A DNA stretch of 64,000 nucleotides from Francisella tularensis subsp. holarctica (GTDB taxonomy: Bacteria > Pseudomonadota > Gammaproteobacteria > Francisellales > CACEW01): NCBI GenBank assembly GCA_945879065.1, contig CAMCUU010000001.1, positions 23,899-87,898 of the forward strand. Reading direction: 5' to 3'. Below, piece after piece: positions 10,891 to 61,365 of this stretch (position 1 is the first letter of the stretch; every line of letters starts with the position of its first letter). The translations under genes were made by a program, and so were the position numbers. Below the pieces are notes generated by a model. The model was given only the letters and a program-made list of their open reading frames with translations. It was not told the DNA's origin and did no database searches.

Positions 10891-11721
10891 ATGGCTGGAG
10901 CTGGAGCTGGTGGCGATTTACCTACTGGAGAGATGAGCACTGAAAAAGAATTGTTTAATGCCATCAATCCAGGAAAAACTTTAGAAAAATTTACAAAGTT
11001 ATTAAAAGGATATTCTGGCGACTGGGCAGCGCTCGCAGAAACCTGGAGTGAGGCACCTTTAAAGGAAGACACTTTATCAATAAGAGCCGCTAGAAATAAT
11101 TGTGTAGATATCCTGAATCATCTACTCAGTCTTAAAGCAGCCGCATGCGAAAAACGAGCCTTAGCCAATCAGTCTAAACTTAGCAATGGGGCAACTCCAC
11201 TTTACATTGCCGCTCAGAATGGCCACCTGGAGGTCGTAAACGCGCTCATAGCTGCAGGTGCAGCTGTTGATCAAGCGTGTCATGATGATTGGACAACTCC
11301 GCTTTTCATCGCATCTCAGCATGGCCACACGGACGTCGTAAAAGCGCTCATAGCTGCAAATGCAGCGCTTAATCAAGCGTGTACTTCTAATCTAGCAACC
11401 CCGCTTTTCATCGCGTCTCAGAACGGCCACCTGACAGTCGTAGAAGCGCTTATAAATGCAGGTGCATCTCTTGATCAAATGGATATTTATAATGAAACTC
11501 CGCTTTTGGTCGCCATTAGGAAAGCGCACACAGCTATCGTAGCAATGCTCTTAGAGGAACCGGAAGCAAGACAAAGATTTAGTCCTTTACGCGCAGCATG
11601 GATAAGCGCCGTTGCAAGAACCCTAGGACGTGCAAGATCTGCAACGGCTTTTGCTGGTGCTGGAGCTGGAGCTGATCATAAACGACCGTGTATTGGCCCC
11701 GTTAAATCGGGATTAAGTTGA
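10891..11721 (+). CDS. Ankyrin-repeat protein (paralog of 7796..8851)
   Basis: 276 aa. Four ANK units (TPLYIAAQNGHLEVVNALIAAGAAVDQ, TPLFIASQHGHTDVVKALIAANAALNQ, TPLFIASQNGHLTVVEALINAGASLDQ, TPLLVAIRKAHTAIVAMLL). N-terminus MAGAGAGG. C-terminus RFSPLRAAWISAV...ATAFAGAGAGA. Confidence 0.9.
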   Translation: MAGAGAGGDLPTGEMSTEKELFNAINPGKTLEKFTKLLKGYSGDWAALAETWSEAPLKEDTLSIRAARNNCVDILNHLLSLKAAACEKRALANQSKLSNGATPLYIAAQNGHLEVVNALIAAGAAVDQACHDDWTTPLFIASQHGHTDVVKALIAANAALNQACTSNLATPLFIASQNGHLTVVEALINAGASLDQMDIYNETPLLVAIRKAHTAIVAMLLEEPEARQRFSPLRAAWISAVARTLGRARSATAFAGAGAGADHKRPCIGPVKSGLS

Positions 11722-12598: not shown

Positions 12599-13375
12599 TT
12601 AAATTTTTGAGAGTGAAATCTGGATAGAGGCCTGAATAGACTGGGCAATTTGCTCAAAAAGATTTTCTTGAGCCTGGGGTGATGAGCCATGCCAAAGCGC
12701 CTGATTAGTTTCTAACTCAATCCCCAAATAATTATTTTTAAATTGCTTTCTTAAATAACTAGTCAGCCCATCTGAGTTACCCCGATAGGGATAGTTTTTT
12801 CTAGTTTTAAAATTTAATTTTTCTAATTCACCCTGCCAGATCTTGCAGAATTTTTTTTCTAATAAATTTTGAGGGTCATAAAGTAACCCAATGTCTAAGT
12901 CTCTTTTTTTATTATTTAAAACCGGCGTAAACGAATGAATAGAAAGATGAATAACTAGATTATTTTTTTTAATTAAATCACTAATTTTGTTTTCTATTTG
13001 GGCTCTGTAGGGCTTATAAAAATCAGTCATTAAATTAATTTTATTTTCTGGGCTTAAATATTTTTTAGAAAATCTGGAAAATAATTTTGGATGATGGAGA
13101 GATCTATTTAATTCAATCACTAATCTGGAAATCTCAGAATAAAAAAATGGAATTTCACCCTGTCCAGCACGGCGGACAAACAGGTCCGCCCCTACAAGGG
13201 GAGAGACGAAATCACAAGATTCAAAATATTTCACCAAATATTTAGCCAGATCCAAAGCGCCGATATCTAAGCCCTCATGAGAATTTAAAATATTGTCTGG
13301 GATTTTTAAAATATGTTTTAAATTTTCGGGGATTTGATTCCCACCGTGCTCGCAAGTCATTAATAACTTAAACAT
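12599..13375 (-). CDS. N-formylglutamate amidohydrolase family protein
   Basis: 258 aa. Contains LLMTCEHGGNQIPENL, SHEGLDIGALDLAKYL, ISRLVIELNRS and IHLSIHSFTPV, matching my recollection of the FGase family. It contains an in-frame palindromic-element insert (DFVSPLVGADLFVRRAGQGE). Confidence 0.8.
   Translation of the reverse strand: MFKLLMTCEHGGNQIPENLKHILKIPDNILNSHEGLDIGALDLAKYLVKYFESCDFVSPLVGADLFVRRAGQGEIPFFYSEISRLVIELNRSLHHPKLFSRFSKKYLSPENKINLMTDFYKPYRAQIENKISDLIKKNNLVIHLSIHSFTPVLNNKKRDLDIGLLYDPQNLLEKKFCKIWQGELEKLNFKTRKNYPYRGNSDGLTSYLRKQFKNNYLGIELETNQALWHGSSPQAQENLFEQIAQSIQASIQISLSKI
13158..13213 (-). repeat. Palindromic element copy inside the amidohydrolase CDS
   Basis: The reverse strand reads GATTTCGTCTCTCCCCTTGTAGGGGCGGACCTGTTTGTCCGCCGTGCTGGACAGGG. 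It shares the CGTCTCTCCCCTTG module with 1451 and 19235, and the GTAGGGGCGGACCTGT.TGTCCGCC hairpin with 19999..20025. Confidence 0.75.
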
Positions 13376-17073: not shown

Positions 17074-18483
17074 TTGGCAGGATTAAAGGTTAGTTCAAAC
17101 TTAACAAGCCCACCGGAGATTAATGCATTTAATAGCGCTCTGTATCGGCAGTTAAAAATTAGAAAGAGCGCTTGGATCCTTGGTGGAATTTTATTTCTGC
17201 ACACAGCTTCCTGTTTTTTCCTGATGGCCTGGGCCCAAGAAAAGAAAAGCAGAGCGTCTGGCGTTTTAATTCGCTGTACTTTGACAGGCCTGATTAATGG
17301 GGCGCTTTATAGCAACGGCTTAACAGAGTTAATTTTAAAATCCTGGGATGATTTGCATCAAGTTTGGGAATCCTGGAAAAAATCTAAATCTTTCAAACCA
17401 CCTAGCATTCCCTCTATTTTTTATTATTTAATTTTAATTAATTTCTCCAGCTGCGGGGCTTTATTAATGCCCGGCGATTTTTTTTCTATTAACCAAGAAA
17501 AAAATAACCAAGCAAAAAAAATTTACTCTCAAGACTTAATCTGGATCAATGCTTTAAGTTTATGGCTCTATGAGTCCTTGCTCATGCAGGCCCCGATTCG
17601 AGCCTTGATTATTTCCCCTTTGCAAAAACTCTGGAACTGGTATCAAAAATCAGAATACCCCTGCCCTGATTTAAAATTTTCTTTTCCTTTGATTACAAAA
17701 CTTGTTTTGGGTTCTTTTTTATTTTTTATATCAGTCCCTTTTTATCTAGGCGCCACAGGGTCGATGGAACGCGCTGCGGAAAAAATGACAGGAATTCGTT
17801 ATTTTCCTTGGTGGCTTTTGAGTAATTTATTTTTAATTGACACAGCAATGGCTTCTGCCATAGCAGGATCTTCTATGCTGCTCCTGTTTACTTATTATCC
17901 AACTAAGGGGCTCTACGCCACGCTGGATCACCTCATCTTTAGGCCTTTTAATTATGCCTCCAAAGTTCAGCACCCCAACCCATTGATTCCCATTAAAAGC
18001 TTGATTAATTGGACGCTCAGAGTGGGTATTTTAACTGCTTGTATTTATGGACTCTTGTCTGCGCTGGCCATTGAAGAAGAGGGCCAGAAAAAAATGATCG
18101 AAGATGGTGGATTACCAGGCCGCGTGATTAAGCAATATGCCAACTGGGGCTTTTCTACAGCAAAGCAAGTTTTTATGATTGCGCCGTTTTTAAATATTAA
18201 TGGCCTCTTTGGTTTTTTAGATGCTTTGCAAAAAATGGCCCAGCTAGGATTTAAACCCGCCTGCTTTTTTCTATGCAGCACTCAAGAATATTCAGATCAG
18301 GAAAAATTAGAGCACTGGAAAAAAGAACTTGATATAGAAAATAGTAATAATGCAAAAATTCTAGAAGACCATATCCCTTTAAAGTCTCGCAAAAAATCAG
18401 CTGACTACGCCGTATTAATTAAGCATTACTCAAATAAGTTATCAAACGCTGGAGATCATCAGGCGTATCAACGCCTGGCATAG
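17074..18483 (+). CDS. Hypothetical polytopic membrane protein
   Basis: 469 aa with many hydrophobic segments (ILGGILFLHTASCFFLMAW, YYLILINFSSCGALLM, LVLGSFLFFISVPFYL, WWLLSNLFLIDTAMASAIAGSSMLLLF). The TTG start in the track is uncertain. It is divergent from the amidoligase operon, and its 3' end overlaps the kdsB 3' end by 65 nt. Confidence 0.6.
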   Translation: MAGLKVSSNLTSPPEINAFNSALYRQLKIRKSAWILGGILFLHTASCFFLMAWAQEKKSRASGVLIRCTLTGLINGALYSNGLTELILKSWDDLHQVWESWKKSKSFKPPSIPSIFYYLILINFSSCGALLMPGDFFSINQEKNNQAKKIYSQDLIWINALSLWLYESLLMQAPIRALIISPLQKLWNWYQKSEYPCPDLKFSFPLITKLVLGSFLFFISVPFYLGATGSMERAAEKMTGIRYFPWWLLSNLFLIDTAMASAIAGSSMLLLFTYYPTKGLYATLDHLIFRPFNYASKVQHPNPLIPIKSLINWTLRVGILTACIYGLLSALAIEEEGQKKMIEDGGLPGRVIKQYANWGFSTAKQVFMIAPFLNINGLFGFLDALQKMAQLGFKPACFFLCSTQEYSDQEKLEHWKKELDIENSNNAKILEDHIPLKSRKKSADYAVLIKHYSNKLSNAGDHQAYQRLA

Positions 18484-19189
18484 AATTTTCCTTGGCTAAT
18501 TCAACGGCGATTTTATAACCAGAATATAAAAATCTTAATTGCTCTAAGCCTTCTAGTTTTTCTAAAACACATTCGGGCATATTTTTATAACTTAATAAAA
18601 AATTTACTTTATAAGCATATAAACCCAAATGCCTAAAATGATTTTTAAGATGTAGGGGCGAATCTTGTATTCGCCCGTTAGCACAGACCCAAGACCGATC
18701 CCAAGGAATCATCGCTCTAGAAAAATACAAAGCCTGACCAAAATGGTTTAAAACCACTTTAGTAATATTGGTATTTTTTAATTCTTCAAAATGTTTAATC
18801 TCTTCACATAAAGTCGCGACTTCACAGCTTGAATTTGATTTTAATAAATTCACCACTTGCTCGGCATTTTTAATATTTAATACCGGCTCATCGACCTGCC
18901 AATTTAAAACAAAATCTTCAGGGGGTAATTTTAATTGCTCGCAGACTTCAGACAGTCTCGACGTCCCTGAAATATGAGACAGATCAGTCATGCAAGTTTG
19001 CGCACCAAACGCTTCTGCAACTTCTTTAACTTTAAGATTATCCACGGCAATAATAACTGGGCCTAAATTAGATTTAACAGCCTGCTCATACGTATGCTGC
19101 ATCAGTGTTTTGCCATTAATATTCGCCAGAATTTTTTCAGGAAATCGACTGGAGGCTAAACGAGCGGGAATAATAATATGAGTATTCAT
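18419..19189 (-). CDS. kdsB: 3-deoxy-manno-octulosonate cytidylyltransferase (CMP-KDO synthetase)
   Basis: 256 aa. Contains IIPARLASSRFPEKILANINGKTLMQHTYEQA, NWQVDEP, ALYFSRAMIPWDR and RHLGLYAYK. It carries an in-frame palindromic-element insert ([12 protein letters not shown]). Confidence 0.93.
   Translation of the reverse strand: MNTHIIIPARLASSRFPEKILANINGKTLMQHTYEQAVKSNLGPVIIAVDNLKVKEVAEAFGAQTCMTDLSHISGTSRLSEVCEQLKLPPEDFVLNWQVDEPVLNIKNAEQVVNLLKSNSSCEVATLCEEIKHFEELKNTNITKVVLNHFGQALYFSRAMIPWDRSWVCANGRIQDSPLHLKNHFRHLGLYAYKVNFLLSYKNMPECVLEKLEGLEQLRFLYSGYKIAVELAKENSMPGVDTPDDLQRLITYLSNA
18651..18676 (+). repeat. Palindromic element copy inside the kdsB CDS (TGTAGGGGCGAATCTTGTATTCGCCC)
   Basis: Nearly identical to 1503..1528. 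On the coding (minus) strand it is read as tgt gct aac ggg cga ata caa gat tcg ccc cta cat. Confidence 0.8.
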
Positions 19190-19205
19190 GTCTATGTTTT
19201 CTTCA

Positions 19206-19235
19206 GATTTTGATTTTGATTTTGATTTTGATTTC
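19206..19235. repeat. Hexanucleotide microsatellite (GATTTT)x4-5, intergenic ycaR/kdsB
   Basis: GATTTTGATTTTGATTTTGATTTTGATTTC read directly. The same hexamer is repeated in frame inside ycaR at about 19427..19445. Confidence 0.85.
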
Positions 19236-19298
19236 GTCTCTCCCCTCGCGGGAGAGACAGGACTGAAAGGGTGAAACCTTTCAGGACAGAGAGGGGGA
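19235..19298 (+). repeat. Double-hairpin GC-rich element, intergenic ycaR/kdsB
   Basis: CGTCTCTCCCCTCGCGGGAGAGACAG forms a stem GTCTCTCCC/GGGAGAGAC. It is followed by CTGAAAGGGTGAAACCTTTCAG (stem CTGAAAGG/CCTTTCAG). It shares the CGTCTCTCCCCT module with 1451 and 13202..13213. Confidence 0.65.
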
Positions 19299-19300
19299 AA

Positions 19301-19516
19301 CTAATCCAGCTCTTCTAAATTTAATTTCCTAGCCTGGTCTAATAACATCACTGGAATCTCATCAATAATGGGATAGGCCAATTTATCCGCACGACACCAG
19401 AGTTCTTCTGTTTTATCTTGTTTTTTATTTTGATTTTGATTTTTATAATTCAAAGGCCCTTTGCATACCGGGCAAACTAGGATTTCTAATAAAGCTTTAT
19501 TCATAGAATTTTTCAC
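19301..19516 (-). CDS. ycaR: Trm112/YcaR-family small zinc-ribbon protein (UPF0434)
   Basis: 71 aa. [16 protein letters not shown]...[27 protein letters not shown] aligns with E. coli YcaR. It has an extra [14 protein letters not shown] insert encoded by the AAAATC repeat. The lpxK-ycaR-kdsB synteny is the same as in E. coli. Confidence 0.85.
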
Positions 19517-20700
19517 ACCCTTAATTTTTTTAAATTTTTAAAATTTTTAATTTTATTAATAAATTCCTGATCAAAATTAAAATCTAAATTTTTAACTTCA
19601 GCGCTAAATTCAGCGCTAACTTCTAAATAAAAATAATGATTTAAATCCTGACCAATATTTAATAAATCTTGTTTTAAATTAATTATTTTTACCATGTCTT
19701 TTTCAGTAGTAATAATAGAAATATCAGCATTATTTAAATCATTAAAAATTAAATCTTGCGCTTTGAAGTCATGATGGTCTGGGAAAATATGTTTAATAAG
19801 TTTAAACCCCAGGCTTTCTAATAATTTAAAAAAACGATCAGGGTTTCCAATACCTGCGACAGCATGAACCCAGGGGCGCTCATGTTCGGGACTGGCAGAC
19901 AGGTCCGCCATCCCTAGCACGCCACCAGCAAAAATAGGCCGAAGTTTTTGAGGCATAAGCTTCATAGAAAAAGAATTAGAAAAAGAATGGATATCTCTTG
20001 TAGGGGCGGACCTGTGTGTCCGCCCTGCCGAATCAAGATCCAGGTCAAAATCAACACCATATTGCGTAATCACAAAATCTGCTTTGTTTAATCTTGAAAC
20101 AGGCTCTCTCAGAGGCCCCGCTGGAATTAAAAAGCCATTTCCAAATTTTCTTTCGCCATCTATGACAATAATTTCCAGGTCTCTATCTAAACCATAATGA
20201 GATAAGCCATCGTCCGATAAAATAATATTCACTTCTGGGAAATTTTTAATTAAACAATCTCGCGCAGCCGCTCTATCAACGCCGACGACCATAGGTAAAT
20301 TAAAATCCTGATTTGAAAATCTAGAAAAAATCATAAAAGGCTCATCGCCGGTGTTTTTAATTAAAGAATGTTTATCAATAATTTGGGGTATTTTTTTCTT
20401 AGAAAAATCACCCAAGTAACCCCTGGAAATCACACCCGGATTAAAACCCTCGGATTTTAATAAATTAATTAAATAAATAATCAAAGGCGTTTTACCCGTC
20501 CCGCCTAAAGTAATATTTCCAATAATAATGACTGGGATATTTTTATTTTTATTTTTTAAAAAAATTTTAAAATTTTTATTAAATAAAAAAATAATTTTAT
20601 AAATAAAACTAAATAGTAATAAAAAATAGATAACAAAATAATCCAGACCCTTTAATTTAAACTTAGGCTTATACCAAAGGGTCTCCAGATATTTAATCAT
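19513..20700 (-). CDS. lpxK: Tetraacyldisaccharide 4'-kinase
   Basis: 395 aa. Contains [38 protein letters not shown] (P-loop), [35 protein letters not shown] and TTEKD. It carries two in-frame palindromic-element inserts. Confidence 0.92.
19894..19918 (-). repeat. Degenerate palindromic element copy inside lpxK
   Basis: The reverse strand reads GCTAGGGATGGCGGACCTGTCTGCC. It is translated as [10 protein letters not shown], in the same orientation and frame as the amidohydrolase copy (LVGADLFVRR). Confidence 0.6.
19999..20025 (+). repeat. Palindromic element copy inside lpxK (TGTAGGGGCGGACCTGTGTGTCCGCCC)
   Basis: Hairpin GGGCGGAC-CTGTGT-GTCCGCCC. On the coding strand it is read as gat tcg gca ggg cgg aca cac agg tcc gcc cct aca aga ([13 protein letters not shown]). 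Confidence 0.8.
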
Positions 20701-28732: not shown

Positions 28733-31378
28733 ATGACTGAAATTTTAATTAACGCGACGCAAGCTGAAGAGATTCGTGTCGCCATGACTGAAAATGGCAA
28801 TGTATTTGATTTCGATATGGAATCTATTCATCGCGAAGATAAAAAAGCCAGCGTCTATAAAGGCATTGTTTCTCGGGTTGAAGCTAGTCTAAACGCTGTT
28901 TTTGTGGACTATGGCGCAGATCGTCATGGCTTTTTACCACTGAAAGAAATCGCGCCCGAGTATTTTCAAAAAGGCACCCCTTCTCAATCCAGTGATCGCT
29001 TTGATTTGCGAACAGCGATTAAAGAAGGCCAGGAATTAATTATTCAAATCAGCAAAGAAGAGCGTGGAACCAAAGGCGCTGCGCTTTCAACTTTTATTAC
29101 TTTGGCGGGATGTTATTTAGTTTTAATGCCCAACAACGAAAGCGCGGGGGGCATCTCCAGGCGTATTGAAGGCGAAGATCGTCAATTATTAAAAGAAGCG
29201 ATGGAAAAACTAGAAGTCCCAGAAGGCATGGGTGTGATTATCAGAACCAATGGCCTGGGAAGATCCCAAGAAGAATTACAGTGGGACTTAAACGCCCTAA
29301 TTAAACTAGCCAATGCCATTAAAGAAGCGGGAGTCAGCAAAAAAGCGCCCTTTTTAATTTACAGAGAAAGCGATGTTATCTCCAGAACTATTCGAGATTA
29401 TTTAAGAGCGGATATTTCACAAATTACTGTAGACACACAAGACGCTTTTGATCGCGTCATGACTCATGTAAATAGACTCAGACCAGAATTTGCCAATAAA
29501 GTAGTTTTATATAAAGGCGATAAACCTCTTTTTATTCATCATCATATTGAGCATCAAATAGAAACGGCTTATCAACGTGAAGTGAAATTACCTTCCGGGG
29601 GTTCCATTGTCATTGACCATACAGAAGCCTTGGTTTCTATTGATATTAACTCTTCTAAAGCAACCAAAGGCGAAGACATCGAAGAAACCGCTCTCCAAAC
29701 CAACCTGGAAGCTGCGATGGAAATCGCTCGCCAGGCGAGATTAAGAGATATTGGCGGCCTGATCGTCATTGATTTTATTGACATGCTATCCACAAGACAT
29801 CAAAGAGATGTGGAAACCCAATTACAAGATTCCCTTAAAAAAGATCGTGCTCGTGTTCAAATTGGGCGCATCTCAAGATTCGGGCTCTTAGAAATGTCTC
29901 GTCAACGTCTGAGACCTTCTTTAGACGAATCGACCCATATTACATGCCCTCGTTGCAATGGTCAGGGGACTATTAGGGGCATTGATTCTTTAGGTCTTTC
30001 TATATTAAGACTCTTAGAAGAAGACGCTGCGTCTTATCAATATCGCGAGTTTCAAGTTGAGCTACCAGTTTCAGTTGCTACTTTTTTATTAAACGAAAAA
30101 CGCCAGTTAATTACTCAAATAGAAACCAAGCGTCGCGTTAAAATTATTTTAATTCCCAATCAGCATATGGAAACACCCCATTATGAAATTAAACGCTTTA
30201 AACAAAGCGGAGATTCTCTTTCTGAAAGAAGCTATGAATTAATTTCAAAGACCTCCCAAGAAAACCATGCTTTCTTACAAACTTCTGAGCGAGAAGAGGC
30301 GGCGATTACAGGGGTCTCCATTGACCAACCTCCTAAAAAAGCAGGCTTAATTACGCGCCTATTAAAAGAACTATTTTCCAGCCCTAAAACAAAAGCAGAC
30401 AAACCTGCCGCCAATCAAAATCAAGCGGACAAGCCACAAGCAGGAACCAGCACCCATAGACCTCAAAATCAAAGAACTAACAATAATACTCGAGGCCCCA
30501 GAACGCGGACTCCAGGGTCAACTCCAGGGTCAACTCCAGGGTCAACTCCAGCTTCAAACTCAGGATTAGCTGACAAACAAGCTAGTACTTCTGAAAAAAA
30601 CAATCTGGAAAAAAATACAAACACAGGTGAGCGTCGAAATACGCAAAGACCAGAAAGATCAGAAAGATCAGAAAGACCCCCTGCTCGTCGCCAGAGCCAA
30701 AATCACAATCAAGCTCATGAGCAGACTGATCTAGAAACTGGAACCGTCAATCAATCCACCAATACAGGCTTTGAAAGACAAGAAAAACCTGAAAGAAAAC
30801 CAAGAGCCCCAAGAGCGCAAACCACGCAAGCTCCAAGAGAGATAACATCTCCTGAAGTTAATAATACTAATCATATTAATAACGCTCATAACTCTTCAGA
30901 AAATAAAAATACTGGAAACCAGGGAAATCAGGAAAATCAAAATACTGAAAGAAAGCCAAGAGCCCCCCGCTCTTCCAGCCCCAGGTCTAATAACTCTAAT
31001 AACTCTAATAATTTTAATAATACTAAAAAATCTGAAATTTCTATTCAGTCTTTTGAACGTTATGAAGTTAAAAACGAACAGTCGGCTCATATCATCAGCC
31101 CTGCCGTACAAGAGTTACTAAGCACCAGTCACTCCCTGCTTTCAGATAAAAATGCACAGCAGGCGGAGACTCTTTCTCATCATCAGGACTCCGTGCAAAA
31201 GCAAAAATCAGCCAAGCTCAATATCGAAGTCCAAGAAGCGCAAACTAGCTTCTCCCTCGATGCTGAAAAAGAAAGATTGGCAGCGATTTCAAAAATAGAA
31301 ATCCAACAAGTTGTCAGCCAAAAAAAATCTGAGTCGGCTCAAAACTCTAAAATTCAAATCGAATCTCAAGAGGTTTGA
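28733..31378 (+). CDS. rne: Ribonuclease E
   Basis: 881 aa. The N-terminal catalytic half includes ILINATQAEEIRVAMTENG, an S1 domain (VYKGIVSRVEASLNAVFVDYG), SIVIDHTEALVSIDINS, GGLIVIDFIDM and CPRCNGQGTIR. The C-terminal half is low-complexity with tandem PGST, ERS and NNS repeats. Confidence 0.93.
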   Translation: MTEILINATQAEEIRVAMTENGNVFDFDMESIHREDKKASVYKGIVSRVEASLNAVFVDYGADRHGFLPLKEIAPEYFQKGTPSQSSDRFDLRTAIKEGQELIIQISKEERGTKGAALSTFITLAGCYLVLMPNNESAGGISRRIEGEDRQLLKEAMEKLEVPEGMGVIIRTNGLGRSQEELQWDLNALIKLANAIKEAGVSKKAPFLIYRESDVISRTIRDYLRADISQITVDTQDAFDRVMTHVNRLRPEFANKVVLYKGDKPLFIHHHIEHQIETAYQREVKLPSGGSIVIDHTEALVSIDINSSKATKGEDIEETALQTNLEAAMEIARQARLRDIGGLIVIDFIDMLSTRHQRDVETQLQDSLKKDRARVQIGRISRFGLLEMSRQRLRPSLDESTHITCPRCNGQGTIRGIDSLGLSILRLLEEDAASYQYREFQVELPVSVATFLLNEKRQLITQIETKRRVKIILIPNQHMETPHYEIKRFKQSGDSLSERSYELISKTSQENHAFLQTSEREEAAITGVSIDQPPKKAGLITRLLKELFSSPKTKADKPAANQNQADKPQAGTSTHRPQNQRTNNNTRGPRTRTPGSTPGSTPGSTPASNSGLADKQASTSEKNNLEKNTNTGERRNTQRPERSERSERPPARRQSQNHNQAHEQTDLETGTVNQSTNTGFERQEKPERKPRAPRAQTTQAPREITSPEVNNTNHINNAHNSSENKNTGNQGNQENQNTERKPRAPRSSSPRSNNSNNSNNFNNTKKSEISIQSFERYEVKNEQSAHIISPAVQELLSTSHSLLSDKNAQQAETLSHHQDSVQKQKSAKLNIEVQEAQTSFSLDAEKERLAAISKIEIQQVVSQKKSESAQNSKIQIESQEV

Positions 31379-31387
31379 TTAAATAAT

Positions 31388-31428
31388 AAAAAAGCCTGGA
31401 TTTATTAATTTAAATCCAGGCTTTTTTA
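31388..31428. terminator. Bidirectional rho-independent terminator between rne and the resolvase-like gene
   Basis: AAAAAGCCTGGATTTA-TTAATT-TAAATCCAGGCTTTTTT: a perfect 12-bp stem flanked by an A-run and a T-run. Confidence 0.75.
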
Positions 31429-31468
31429 TTTATAATTTTTTTTAAAATTTTTAATATTTTTAAAAAAC

Positions 31469-38126: not shown

Positions 38127-38173
38127 ATAAAAATTCTACCCCTATTAAAAATATAAAATATAAATTGCACTAA

Positions 38174-38203
38174 GCCGACACCCGCCGACACGCGCCGACA
38201 CCT
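38174..38203. repeat. GC-rich 10-bp direct repeat (GCCGACACNC)x3 in the katA/ycaO divergent intergenic region
   Basis: GCCGACACCC GCCGACACGC GCCGACACCT read directly. It lies about 48-77 nt upstream of the katA ATG (minus strand). Confidence 0.8.
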
Positions 38204-38258
38204 GCCAATATACTGATAACCGGGTGTTTATATTAGTTTTACTTAGTTTTTACCAGCC

Positions 38259-38401: not shown

Positions 38402-39538
38402 ATGACTTTAGATTCCCCATTAACTCTAGACTTGCATCTTAAAGGCACCGTCAGGGCTCGAGACCCTTCGGAGACTTTAAAAATCATTCAGCCCTATATT
38501 CAAAAAGCGGGGATCACTCGCCTTGCAAATTTAACCCACTTGGATTGCCTGGGGATTCCTGTTTTTACCTGCATTCGTCCACTGTCTAAAAATCTTTCGA
38601 CGTCTCAAGGCAAAGGAATTACAGACGATTTAGCCAAGTGCAGTGCTTATATGGAAGCCATTGAGCATTTTTTTAGTGAGAATATTCAGGCGGATTTAAT
38701 TAGCCCCATGGATCAAATTCCAGAGTCTTCAAGAGTTGATTTAGATTTATTATCTAAAGGTTTAATCCACTCAGACCAGGTTAATCCCTATCAAACTTAT
38801 ATTACTCACTGGACTCTCTGCGAAAGTTTATTAGGCGAAAAATCTTTATATTTTCCAACGGAATATTTTTCTTTTAATTTAACCCAGCCCTGCCTTGAAA
38901 ATAGTTTATTTAAAAAAACGACGACGGGTTTAGCCTCTGGTAATAATTTAATTGAAGCCTCCGTCCATGCGCTTTATGAGTGTGTTGAACGCCATATGAG
39001 TTTTTTATTTTCCAAGCTTTCTCATGCTGAAAAAATGGCGCGAATTTTAAATCCCGACAGTATTAATTATCCAGAAGCTCAAGACTTAATTAAAAAATTA
39101 AAAAACCATCATATTGATTGCGTGATTTTTGATACTACTCAGAATTTAAACATCCCTACTTTTCATGTGATCATTGCGGATGACAATCCTTTTAGAAAAT
39201 TAGGTCATTACAGCGGGACGGGAACTCATCTTCATGCTGGAATTGCCTTATGCAGAGCCCTCACAGAAGCGGTGCAATCAAGATTAACTTATATCGCCGG
39301 CTCTCGAGATGACATGTTTCCTAAAGACTATAAAACCCAATGGGGGGCGTTAAAATTTTCTGGGACTTATTTATTCAAACTAGACCCTGAAAAAACTTAT
39401 TTATCCCTTCAAGAGCAATATGATTTTTTATTAAATACTTTAAAAAATCATGCTTTTCATCCCTATAGACATATTCATACCCAAGCGTCTGATTTAATTA
39501 CGGTCTTAAAAATTATGATTCCAGGAATGGCTCTATGA
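38402..39538 (+). CDS. YcaO-domain protein (ATP-dependent backbone-amide activating enzyme)
   Basis: 378 aa. Contains LSTSQGKGITDDLAKCSAYMEAIEHF and TTTGLASGNNLIEASVHALYECVERH, the hallmark YcaO motifs. A 4-nt ATGA overlap links it to the downstream TfuA gene. Confidence 0.85.
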   Translation: MTLDSPLTLDLHLKGTVRARDPSETLKIIQPYIQKAGITRLANLTHLDCLGIPVFTCIRPLSKNLSTSQGKGITDDLAKCSAYMEAIEHFFSENIQADLISPMDQIPESSRVDLDLLSKGLIHSDQVNPYQTYITHWTLCESLLGEKSLYFPTEYFSFNLTQPCLENSLFKKTTTGLASGNNLIEASVHALYECVERHMSFLFSKLSHAEKMARILNPDSINYPEAQDLIKKLKNHHIDCVIFDTTQNLNIPTFHVIIADDNPFRKLGHYSGTGTHLHAGIALCRALTEAVQSRLTYIAGSRDDMFPKDYKTQWGALKFSGTYLFKLDPEKTYLSLQEQYDFLLNTLKNHAFHPYRHIHTQASDLITVLKIMIPGMAL

Positions 39539-59276: not shown

Positions 59277-59312
59277 AACAAAGGGGGGGGTAAATTGCCC
59301 CCCCTTTGTAGT
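59277..59312 (-). terminator. Rho-independent terminator downstream of the small membrane protein gene
   Basis: CAAAGGGGGGGG-TAAATT-GCCCCCCCTTTG. On the minus strand the stem is followed by TTGCTTTT. Confidence 0.6.
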
Positions 59313-60212: not shown

Positions 60213-60812
<600 letters not shown>

Positions 60813-60831: not shown

Positions 60832-60859
60832 GGGACGAATACAAGATTCGCCCCTCTAC
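60832..60859 (-). repeat. Palindromic element copy, intergenic wrbA/secB
   Basis: The reverse complement reads GTAGAGGGGCGAATCTTGTATTCGTCCC, near-identical to 1504..1528 and 18653..18676. Confidence 0.75.
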
Positions 60860-60885: not shown

Positions 60886-61365
60886 TTATTGAATGGTCTC
60901 TGTTGTTTTAGCTGGCTGTTTTTGCTGCAAGCCTTGAGCATACAAAGCATCAAAATTAACAGGTGCTAATTGCAAATCTGGAAAGCCCGCCCGAGTAACC
61001 AAACTAGAGAGCATTTCACGCGCATAGGGAAATAAAGTACTAGGACAAAAACTACCCAAAATATGACCCAACTGGGCTTCTGGAAAATTCGCAATCGTAA
61101 ATATTCCGACTTGTTTTAACTGAATCAAAAAAGCAGTCTTTTGAGCAGTCTTAGCAGTGACCGTCAAAGTCAAAGTCACTTTATGCGTATTGGGCATGCT
61201 GGCCACTACTTCACTCGCTGTGTTTAATTCAATATTCGCCTCGGGTTTCCAGCTTTCTTGAAACATCGCGGGGCTATTGGGGGACTCGACAGAGACATCT
61301 TCGACGTAAATTTTTTGAATTAAAAATTCACCTTGAGGTGCTTGATTTTGATCTAATTCAGCCAT
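60886..61365 (-). CDS. secB: Protein-export chaperone SecB
   Basis: 159 aa. FLIQKIYVEDVSVESPNSPAMF...CPSTLFPYAREMLSSLVTRAGFPDLQLAPVNFDALY aligns along its length with E. coli SecB. Confidence 0.9.
   Translation of the reverse strand: MAELDQNQAPQGEFLIQKIYVEDVSVESPNSPAMFQESWKPEANIELNTASEVVASMPNTHKVTLTLTVTAKTAQKTAFLIQLKQVGIFTIANFPEAQLGHILGSFCPSTLFPYAREMLSSLVTRAGFPDLQLAPVNFDALYAQGLQQKQPAKTTETIQ

Follow-up and report, generated by a model that had tools for sequence, protein, structure and literature searches.

The closest described relatives of the hairpin considered here are the GTAG-tagged REPs, a superfamily defined by Di Nocera, De Gregorio and Rocco (2013; PMC3733652). The stem of a GTAG-tagged REP is GC-rich and 6-13 bp long. 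For subclass 2.4 REPs, Quentin et al. (2018; PMC6006769 section 13) described a GT[AG]G tag and a stem foot of three G-C pairs, together with REP copies that lie in frame in the transposase gene itself, in the part that separates HuH from Y. REPs have been found in the coding regions of several species, where they were argued to occupy loops or linkers (PMC3733652). Because intragenic REPs have already been published, the hairpin inside kdsB belongs to a known class of element.

Our analysis covered one continuous stretch of 64,000 nucleotides (the 64-kb window), in which a 26-nt hairpin lies inside kdsB, the gene for CMP-KDO synthetase. This 26-mer is very probably a GTAG-tagged REP of the subclass 2.4 RAYT (TnpA_REP) type that landed in DNA encoding a loop of KdsB. 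As in these REPs, a GTAG adjoins the base of a short GC-rich stem-loop whose foot has three G-C pairs, the stem shows compensatory changes, and the copies are dispersed, with two of those in the window just 3' of genes. Inverted pairs in related genomes are a further likeness, as are in-frame copies both in a Y1 transposase gene and in the loops or linkers of unrelated genes. The host differs, being an AT-rich (38% GC) uncultured freshwater gammaproteobacterium. In addition, the seven REP or REP-like copies of the window are all singletons, three of them intragenic. The exact 26-mer is common to contigs that differ widely in GC content and phylum, a level of identity for which we found no statement in PMC3733652 or PMC6006769.

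REPINs provide a second comparison (Bertels and Rainey 2011, PMC3116915). The element corresponds to a REP singlet of the REPIN-forming kind, and a 185-nt inverted pair of exact copies is present at three unrelated sites in contigs that share their lake sample with one relative, L003. In contrast, the kdsB copy and the other window copies are single, and single REPs are regarded as immobile remnants in the REPIN model (PMC3116915). REPIN-RAYT systems have been described as vertical and lineage-specific, whereas the 26-mer found here crosses phyla.

The third system is that of the Rickettsia palindromic elements (RPEs), of which RPE-1 to RPE-8 were reportedly described by Ogata and colleagues in 2000. 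Classic RPE-1 is about 100-150 bp long. Like the element in kdsB, RPEs are palindromes in an AT-rich genome that sit in frame in housekeeping genes, where they add short peptides at tolerated surface positions and leave the gene preserved. The core of our element is only 26 nt, with about 0 bits of conservation outside it over 123 copies. RPEs have no sequence similarity to it and are restricted to Rickettsia, whereas the host here is a gammaproteobacterium. Di Nocera et al. also noted that RPE-1 is longer and equated the short RPE-4 and RPE-6 with CGTC-tagged REPs, not GTAG-tagged ones (PMC3733652).

Anatomy and copies of the element in the window

The kdsB copy has a perfect 8-bp stem (GGGCGAAT/ATTCGCCC), a 5-nt loop, and a GGG/CCC foot, as read from its sequence (Table 1). 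The GTAG abuts the stem directly, and the same is true at 1504, 20000, and 13195 (minus strand). On the kdsB mRNA strand, the element reads GGGCGAAUACAAGAUUCGCCCCUACA and encodes GRIQDSPLH, residues G172 to H180. The original prediction had given a coding read of 12 residues, which is correct and corresponds to residues 169-180, with the element itself covering G172-H180. Five of the six reading frames through the 26-mer are open, and the closed one is the frame that reads TAG. A full-text literature search with the sequence string of the element returned only unrelated primer sequences.

The whole window was searched with the 22-nt core, allowing up to 3 mismatches. Four matches were found where 0.01 were expected, and none of 100 dinucleotide-preserving shuffles contained four. 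As had been predicted, the copy at 1503-1528 is the identical 26-mer. The predicted near-identical reverse copy at 60832-60859 is also present, with one mismatch to the kdsB copy in the 22-nt core and an extra A after GTAG. The minus-strand gene beside the 1503-1528 copy is one that we take to be glutaminyl-tRNA synthetase (glnS). Of the four copies of this form (variant A), only the one in kdsB is intragenic. Two others are found just 3' of genes and the last between convergent genes, all of them locations typical of REPs.

A sister variant, GTAGGGGCGGACCTGTKTGTCCGCC, was missed by the original prediction. It can be written as GTAGGGGCGGAC CTGTKT GTCCGCC, with one stem pair altered on both arms, and both of its window copies (variant B, 2/2) are intragenic, one in lpxK and one in a gene of the FGase family. 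With four copies of variant A and two of variant B, the window total is far over chance. The three intragenic copies, in kdsB, lpxK, and the FGase-family gene, are read in three different frames and give the peptides GRIQDSPLH, GRTHRSAPT, and VGADLFVR, respectively. All three genes are intact despite their inserts. A further GC-rich stretch in lpxK (19856-19929) may be a decayed inverted REP pair, which it resembles by eye. No inverted REP doublet, the arrangement of a REPIN, was found among the window copies.

The window also contains a second family of palindromic repeats, TTCGTCTCTCCCCTTGCGGGAGAGACAGGCTGAA, in which the stem is 9 bp long and the head is CGTC-like. Three copies are present where 0.01 were expected, and in two of the three a GTAG REP lies between the left and right arms. 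One of these is the FGase insert, in which a sister-variant REP (13167-13198, minus strand) is enclosed. The other is the element at 1449-1540, which encloses the REP at 1503-1528.

A scan for GC-rich 24-mers was also tried as a finder of intragenic elements and was dropped as too unspecific. Homologues of UvrA place the host as an unclassified gammaproteobacterium; the extra length of its UvrA comes from a likely false start codon and an AT-rich insert, and no REP is involved there.

Coincidence is excluded as an explanation for these copies, because four matches were observed and 0.01 were expected. Another possible explanation is an assembly artefact. Because the genome was assembled from a metagenome, where chimeric joins can arise at short repeats, the repeated 26-mer could have misled the assembler. 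However, the kdsB reading frame is intact and in frame on both sides of the hairpin, and the surrounding synteny is as in relatives. The gene with its hairpin was also recovered in three separate assemblies (NCBI/ENA, 159,741 nt; ENA k141_1565542; JGI, 94,390 nt). Because these independent assemblies agree, an artefact is excluded as well; we regard either explanation as extremely improbable.

Table 1. Positions of the REP copies, associated genes, and second-family palindromes, in window coordinates unless a contig is named
Feature	Position	Strand	Details
REP copy in kdsB	18651..18676	+	TGTAGGGGCGAATCTTGTATTCGCCC, 26 nt
GTAG head of kdsB copy	18652-18655	+	
Stem of kdsB copy, first arm	18656-18663	+	
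Loop of kdsB copy	18664-18668	+	
Stem of kdsB copy, second arm	18669-18676	+	
kdsB (CMP-KDO synthetase)	18419..19189	-	256 aa; intact, in frame
Identical 26-nt REP copy	1503..1528	+	Extragenic; 17 nt past the stop of minus-strand gene 1545-3239
REP copy	60832..60859	-	GTAGAGGGGCGAATCTTGTATTCGTCCC; spacer of same-strand genes 60213-60806 and 60886-61365
Degenerate REP-like hairpin	8856..8877	+	3 mismatches; no GTAG head; convergent genes on either side
Sister-variant REP	19997..20028	+	GTAGGGGCGGACCTGTGTGTCCGCCC; in frame in lpxK (19513-20700, -); encodes GRTHRSAPT
In-frame insert of about 60 nt	13150..13212	-	Encodes FVSPLVGADLFVRRAGQGEI; in FGase-family gene 12599-13375
GC-rich stretch in lpxK	19856..19929	-	Encodes an 18-residue peptide
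Second palindromic family, window	1449-1475		
Second palindromic family, window	13195-13210	-	
Second palindromic family, window	19233-19265		
Second palindromic family, relative	L001 9137-9170		
Second palindromic family, relative	L001 9938-9960		
Second palindromic family, relative	L003 9359-9381		
185-nt unit (inverted REP pair)	L194 3237-3454; L166 3178-3393; L232 2756-2942		Unrelated flanks; two on one contig

The KdsB loop and its counterparts in relatives

KdsB has more than 2000 homologues with the CTP_transf_3 domain, and among solved structures the best match is KdsB of H. influenzae (E=1.6e-59). The sequence RHLGLYAYK (186-194) begins five residues after the REP-coded peptide, in agreement with the predicted placement just upstream of it, and the block RHxGLYAY is invariant. 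The region had been described as variable in KdsB, and two lines of evidence bear this out. The stretch from IPWDR to HFRH ranges from 10 to 18 residues in an alignment of 20 KdsB sequences. The AlphaFold model is confident overall (mean pLDDT 90.5), and its only weak stretch is residues 161-180, which score 62 and 58 per ten-residue block. These residues, which include the REP-coded peptide, form mostly coil and are bounded by strands 152-157 and 185-194. According to this model, the REP landed in DNA coding for a flexible surface loop, the sole poorly ordered one of the protein. The element may have replaced part of an older loop sequence instead of being a pure addition, since the H. influenzae loop is nearly equal in length, only one residue shorter than that of the window protein. 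The element adds or replaces about 8 residues, with the frame kept.

At its 3' end, kdsB overlaps by 65 nt (18419-18483) with a convergent 469-aa ORF on the plus strand (17074-18483). The L001 counterpart of this ORF has no Pfam match, and the same overlap is called in L001 and L003.

The kdsB neighbourhood was compared with those of three relatives. L001 is a separate assembly with 99.6% DNA identity over 13 kb, L002/L003 is fully syntenic at 70% amino acid identity, and L004 has 68% amino acid identity. The hairpin is unchanged in the kdsB of L001. In L002/L003, kdsB is 24 nt (8 codons) shorter at the REP spot, which agrees with the expectation of extra residues relative to close orthologues, and no hairpin remnant was found at this site. 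In L004, this loop is occupied by another GC-rich palindromic insert, at about 560-610 (PGLCPLPSGGGGGRA), which differs from the REP. The edges of the kdsB insertion are imprecise, with a net difference from L003 of 24 nt vs a shared core of 26 nt, and they cannot be fixed because the adjoining loop has diverged. The data support only this much: the kdsB insertion is younger than the divergence from the L003 lineage and is fixed in the sampled strains. The possibility of strain polymorphism raised for kdsB did not materialize, with the REP present in three of three assemblies; it is the lpxK site that is polymorphic instead.

In lpxK, the window (19954-20068) and L001 (9113-9233) show their sole structural difference in 13 kb. 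A tract of about 115-120 nt has been swapped: the window carries the GTAG REP and L001 carries an element of the second palindromic family, both in frame. L003 has an unrelated GC hairpin with a 10-bp stem in its lpxK (8723-8750), at the place matching window 19856-19929. The FGase insert is missing from the L003 and L004 orthologues. The second-family copy in the kdsB-trm112 spacer is kept in both L001 and L003 (Table 1). The L004 FGase gene has its own GC-rich palindromic insert near the C-terminus, at 5161-5219 (LDPGLRRGDAVSCSSSRRRPGSSTH). Judged by sequence comparison, the element belongs to a dispersed palindromic family that is demonstrably mobile, because it is present or absent at orthologous kdsB and FGase sites, is swapped in lpxK, and occurs as a 185-nt pair at three sites.

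A MITE was considered and rejected because target-site duplications are absent, with no duplicated bases in the flanks at 1503, 18651, and 60832, and because the flanks of 123 copies carry about 0 bits of information. The lack of target-site duplications could also fit ectopic recombination or gene conversion between dispersed palindromes. Such exchange could have placed the hairpin in kdsB or could keep its copies identical, perhaps by overwriting an older hairpin, and transposase insertion would not be needed. The different palindrome in the same loop of L004, the lpxK swap between near-identical strains, and the nesting of REPs between second-family arms are all in line with this explanation. 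However, 26 nt is very little homology for entry into a site that lacks the element, the 70% orthologue has no hairpin remnant at the site, and the family accompanies RAYT genes across phyla. We consider conversion unlikely as the route into kdsB but a serious alternative all the same, and it is compatible with an origin of the copies from a RAYT.

A function of the hairpin in kdsB was also weighed. It could act in RNA pausing, processing, or stability, it could be a DNA site for a host protein, or its nine residues could have been recruited by the enzyme. The hairpin is stable, with an RNA fold of -12.7 kcal/mol, and it is unchanged in three independent assemblies. REPs elsewhere have been reported to influence mRNA stability and termination (PMC3733652). 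However, the fold is only a modest gain over shuffles (z = -1.9), the hairpin has no T tract on either strand, and it matches no Rfam family. The nearest orthologues lack the element, the identical sequence occurs in unrelated genes and spacers too, and the loop is predicted to be disordered. A function of this kind is therefore quite improbable, and the kdsB copy is most likely a tolerated neutral passenger with no function of its own.

Two specific functional classes were rejected. Rfam gave no match in the entire 64-kb window at gathering thresholds and only chance-level matches (E >= 0.99) in the surroundings of the element at a permissive E-value, and a known RNA family was discarded for want of a real match to the element or the window. 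An intrinsic terminator was rejected because a T tract is absent after the hairpin; a search of both strands over 18300-19400 gave no site resembling a terminator.

Copies in other genomes and the link to RAYT genes

GTDB genomes were searched with a degenerate pattern that covered both variants and allowed all four combinations of the variable stem pair. At least 120 stretches matched. Among the matches listed are Oscillospiraceae, Prevotella, Pedobacter, Geobacter, Desulfobacterales, Chloroflexi, Acidobacteria, cyanobacteria, a Coxiellaceae MAG, and a Berkiella MAG. In 149 GTDB copies among the matches listed, the variable pair is A-T in 79, G-C in 68, G-T in 2, and A-C in 0. Since the A-T and G-C changes compensate and A-C is absent, the stem is conserved as a structure.

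Tandem and cross-domain occurrences were also seen. A Syntrophobacterales MAG (L111 1675-1981) has a tandem array of six REP copies with a spacing of 33-81 nt. A MAG labelled Promethearchaeota, an Asgard archaeon (L120), has two REP copies, for which transfer or binning contamination is possible.

In metagenomes, the exact 26-mer was found in at least 120 contigs with 34-66% GC, and none of the fetched loci overlaps the window. Over 123 of these copies, among the matches listed, conservation just outside the 26 nt is about 0 bits. An inverted sister-variant partner lies within 70 nt of 48 of 131 metagenome copies (again among the matches listed), a doublet layout already familiar from REPs. 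The near-identity of the kdsB copy to distant non-coding copies had been taken as a sign of recent transposition or gene conversion. The preference for such events over coincidence holds, given the counts in the window, but "recent" does not: the 26-mer is unchanged across all these contigs, so near-identity gives no recency. Copy-to-copy identity is uninformative on age. The sequence of the 26-mer is instead held by constraint, presumably recognition by a transposase.

ORFs within 1.2 kb of 149 hairpins were clustered, and no recurrent neighbouring gene was found. The sole recurrent cluster consisted of RAYT-like ORFs that contain the hairpin. In 8 fetched loci, the hairpin lies inside Y1 transposase-like genes, between the HUH motif (PNHIH) and the helix with the catalytic Tyr (WQRNYYEH). 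The RAYT-like proteins match Pfam Y1_Tnp, and they also match NCBIfam REP_Tyr_transpos, below its cutoff. Homologues at JGI carry the label "REP element-mobilizing transposase RayT". The 64-kb window itself contains no HUH...Y (RAYT) gene. One candidate RAYT, P0160, was rejected, since both its samples of origin and its genomic context were different and it had no link to this genome.

The exact 26-mer is also carried by AT-rich contigs (34-41% GC) in Ga0214919, the lake metagenome of L003. The sample, the GC content, and the shared REP sequence suggest that these contigs may belong to the lineage of the window. One of them, the AT-rich L194, has a gene for a RAYT-like protein, and REP arms are reached at the 3' end of this gene. 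The 185-nt unit in these contigs is made of two inverted exact REPs and a conserved 104-nt spacer with its own GC hairpin, and from its sequence and its sites (Table 1) it behaves like a mobile REPIN. In-frame REPs were also found in other genes of this lake sample. An RlmL gene (L213 4709-4732) has one inside its methyltransferase domain that encodes the identical GRIQDSPLH, an NRPS (L202 7048-7071) has one in the linker between condensation and adenylation domains, and an NAD-dependent epimerase (L232 898-922) has a third.

Proposed mechanism, implications, and other window features

The mobilising enzyme in this organism is presumably a RAYT, which would be encoded elsewhere in the genome. 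It would recognise the folded single-stranded hairpin with its GTAG tag, and the expected partner would be a subclass 2.4 RAYT flanked by or containing GTAGGGGCGAATCTTGTATTCGCCC. The enzyme might cut the REP and rejoin it at new sites in HUH/Y1 fashion. Selection could retain those intragenic landings that keep the frame, avoid stops, and fall in tolerant loops. To our knowledge, RAYT-catalysed insertion of a REP at a new site has not been demonstrated for subclass 2.4.

A broader proposal can be made only tentatively, and we hold it with more doubt than belief. A near-invariant 26-nt REP, together with subclass 2.4 RAYT genes, might circulate horizontally among many phyla. With the second palindromic family, it might actively rewrite the surface loops of essential enzymes in this lineage (KdsB and LpxK, and RlmL in a co-occurring contig). 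At a given set of codons, one element would nest in another or take its place, and strains with 99.6% identity would already differ in this way. If this is true, REPs are a standing source of protein-loop variation, and REP-RAYT systems are not all strictly vertical and lineage-private. Two features go beyond the cited papers: the 26-mer is invariant across phyla, and two palindromic families are swapped between strains inside essential genes.

The kdsB locus is a clear case of REP tolerance in an essential enzyme of the lipopolysaccharide pathway, in which one relative is free of the insert, another has a different one, and the protein structure offers a rationale for the tolerance. In AT-rich uncultured bacteria, GC-rich hairpins can form a visible share of intragenic variation. 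For annotation and protein alignment, this means that odd loop peptides such as ANTRFAPT are footprints of repeats.

Several other features of the window were recorded. A perfect 20-bp inverted repeat at 31385-31430, with the look of a bidirectional terminator, lies just after an 881-aa gene (28733-31378); Pfam domains of RNase E/G are present in the L001 counterpart of this gene. Another hairpin, at 59278-59309, has a 12-bp stem with runs of G8 and C7. Upstream of the gene at 38402, three copies of the octamer GCCGACAC are spaced 10-11 nt apart (38170-38208). DNA repeats of 99-102 nt were seen at 3628-3956, 7796-8851, and 10891-11721, and two ORFs there start with MAGAGAGAG. By their length and sequence, these repeats look like ankyrin-repeat-like units, which, together with the 38% GC content, hints at a host-associated lifestyle.
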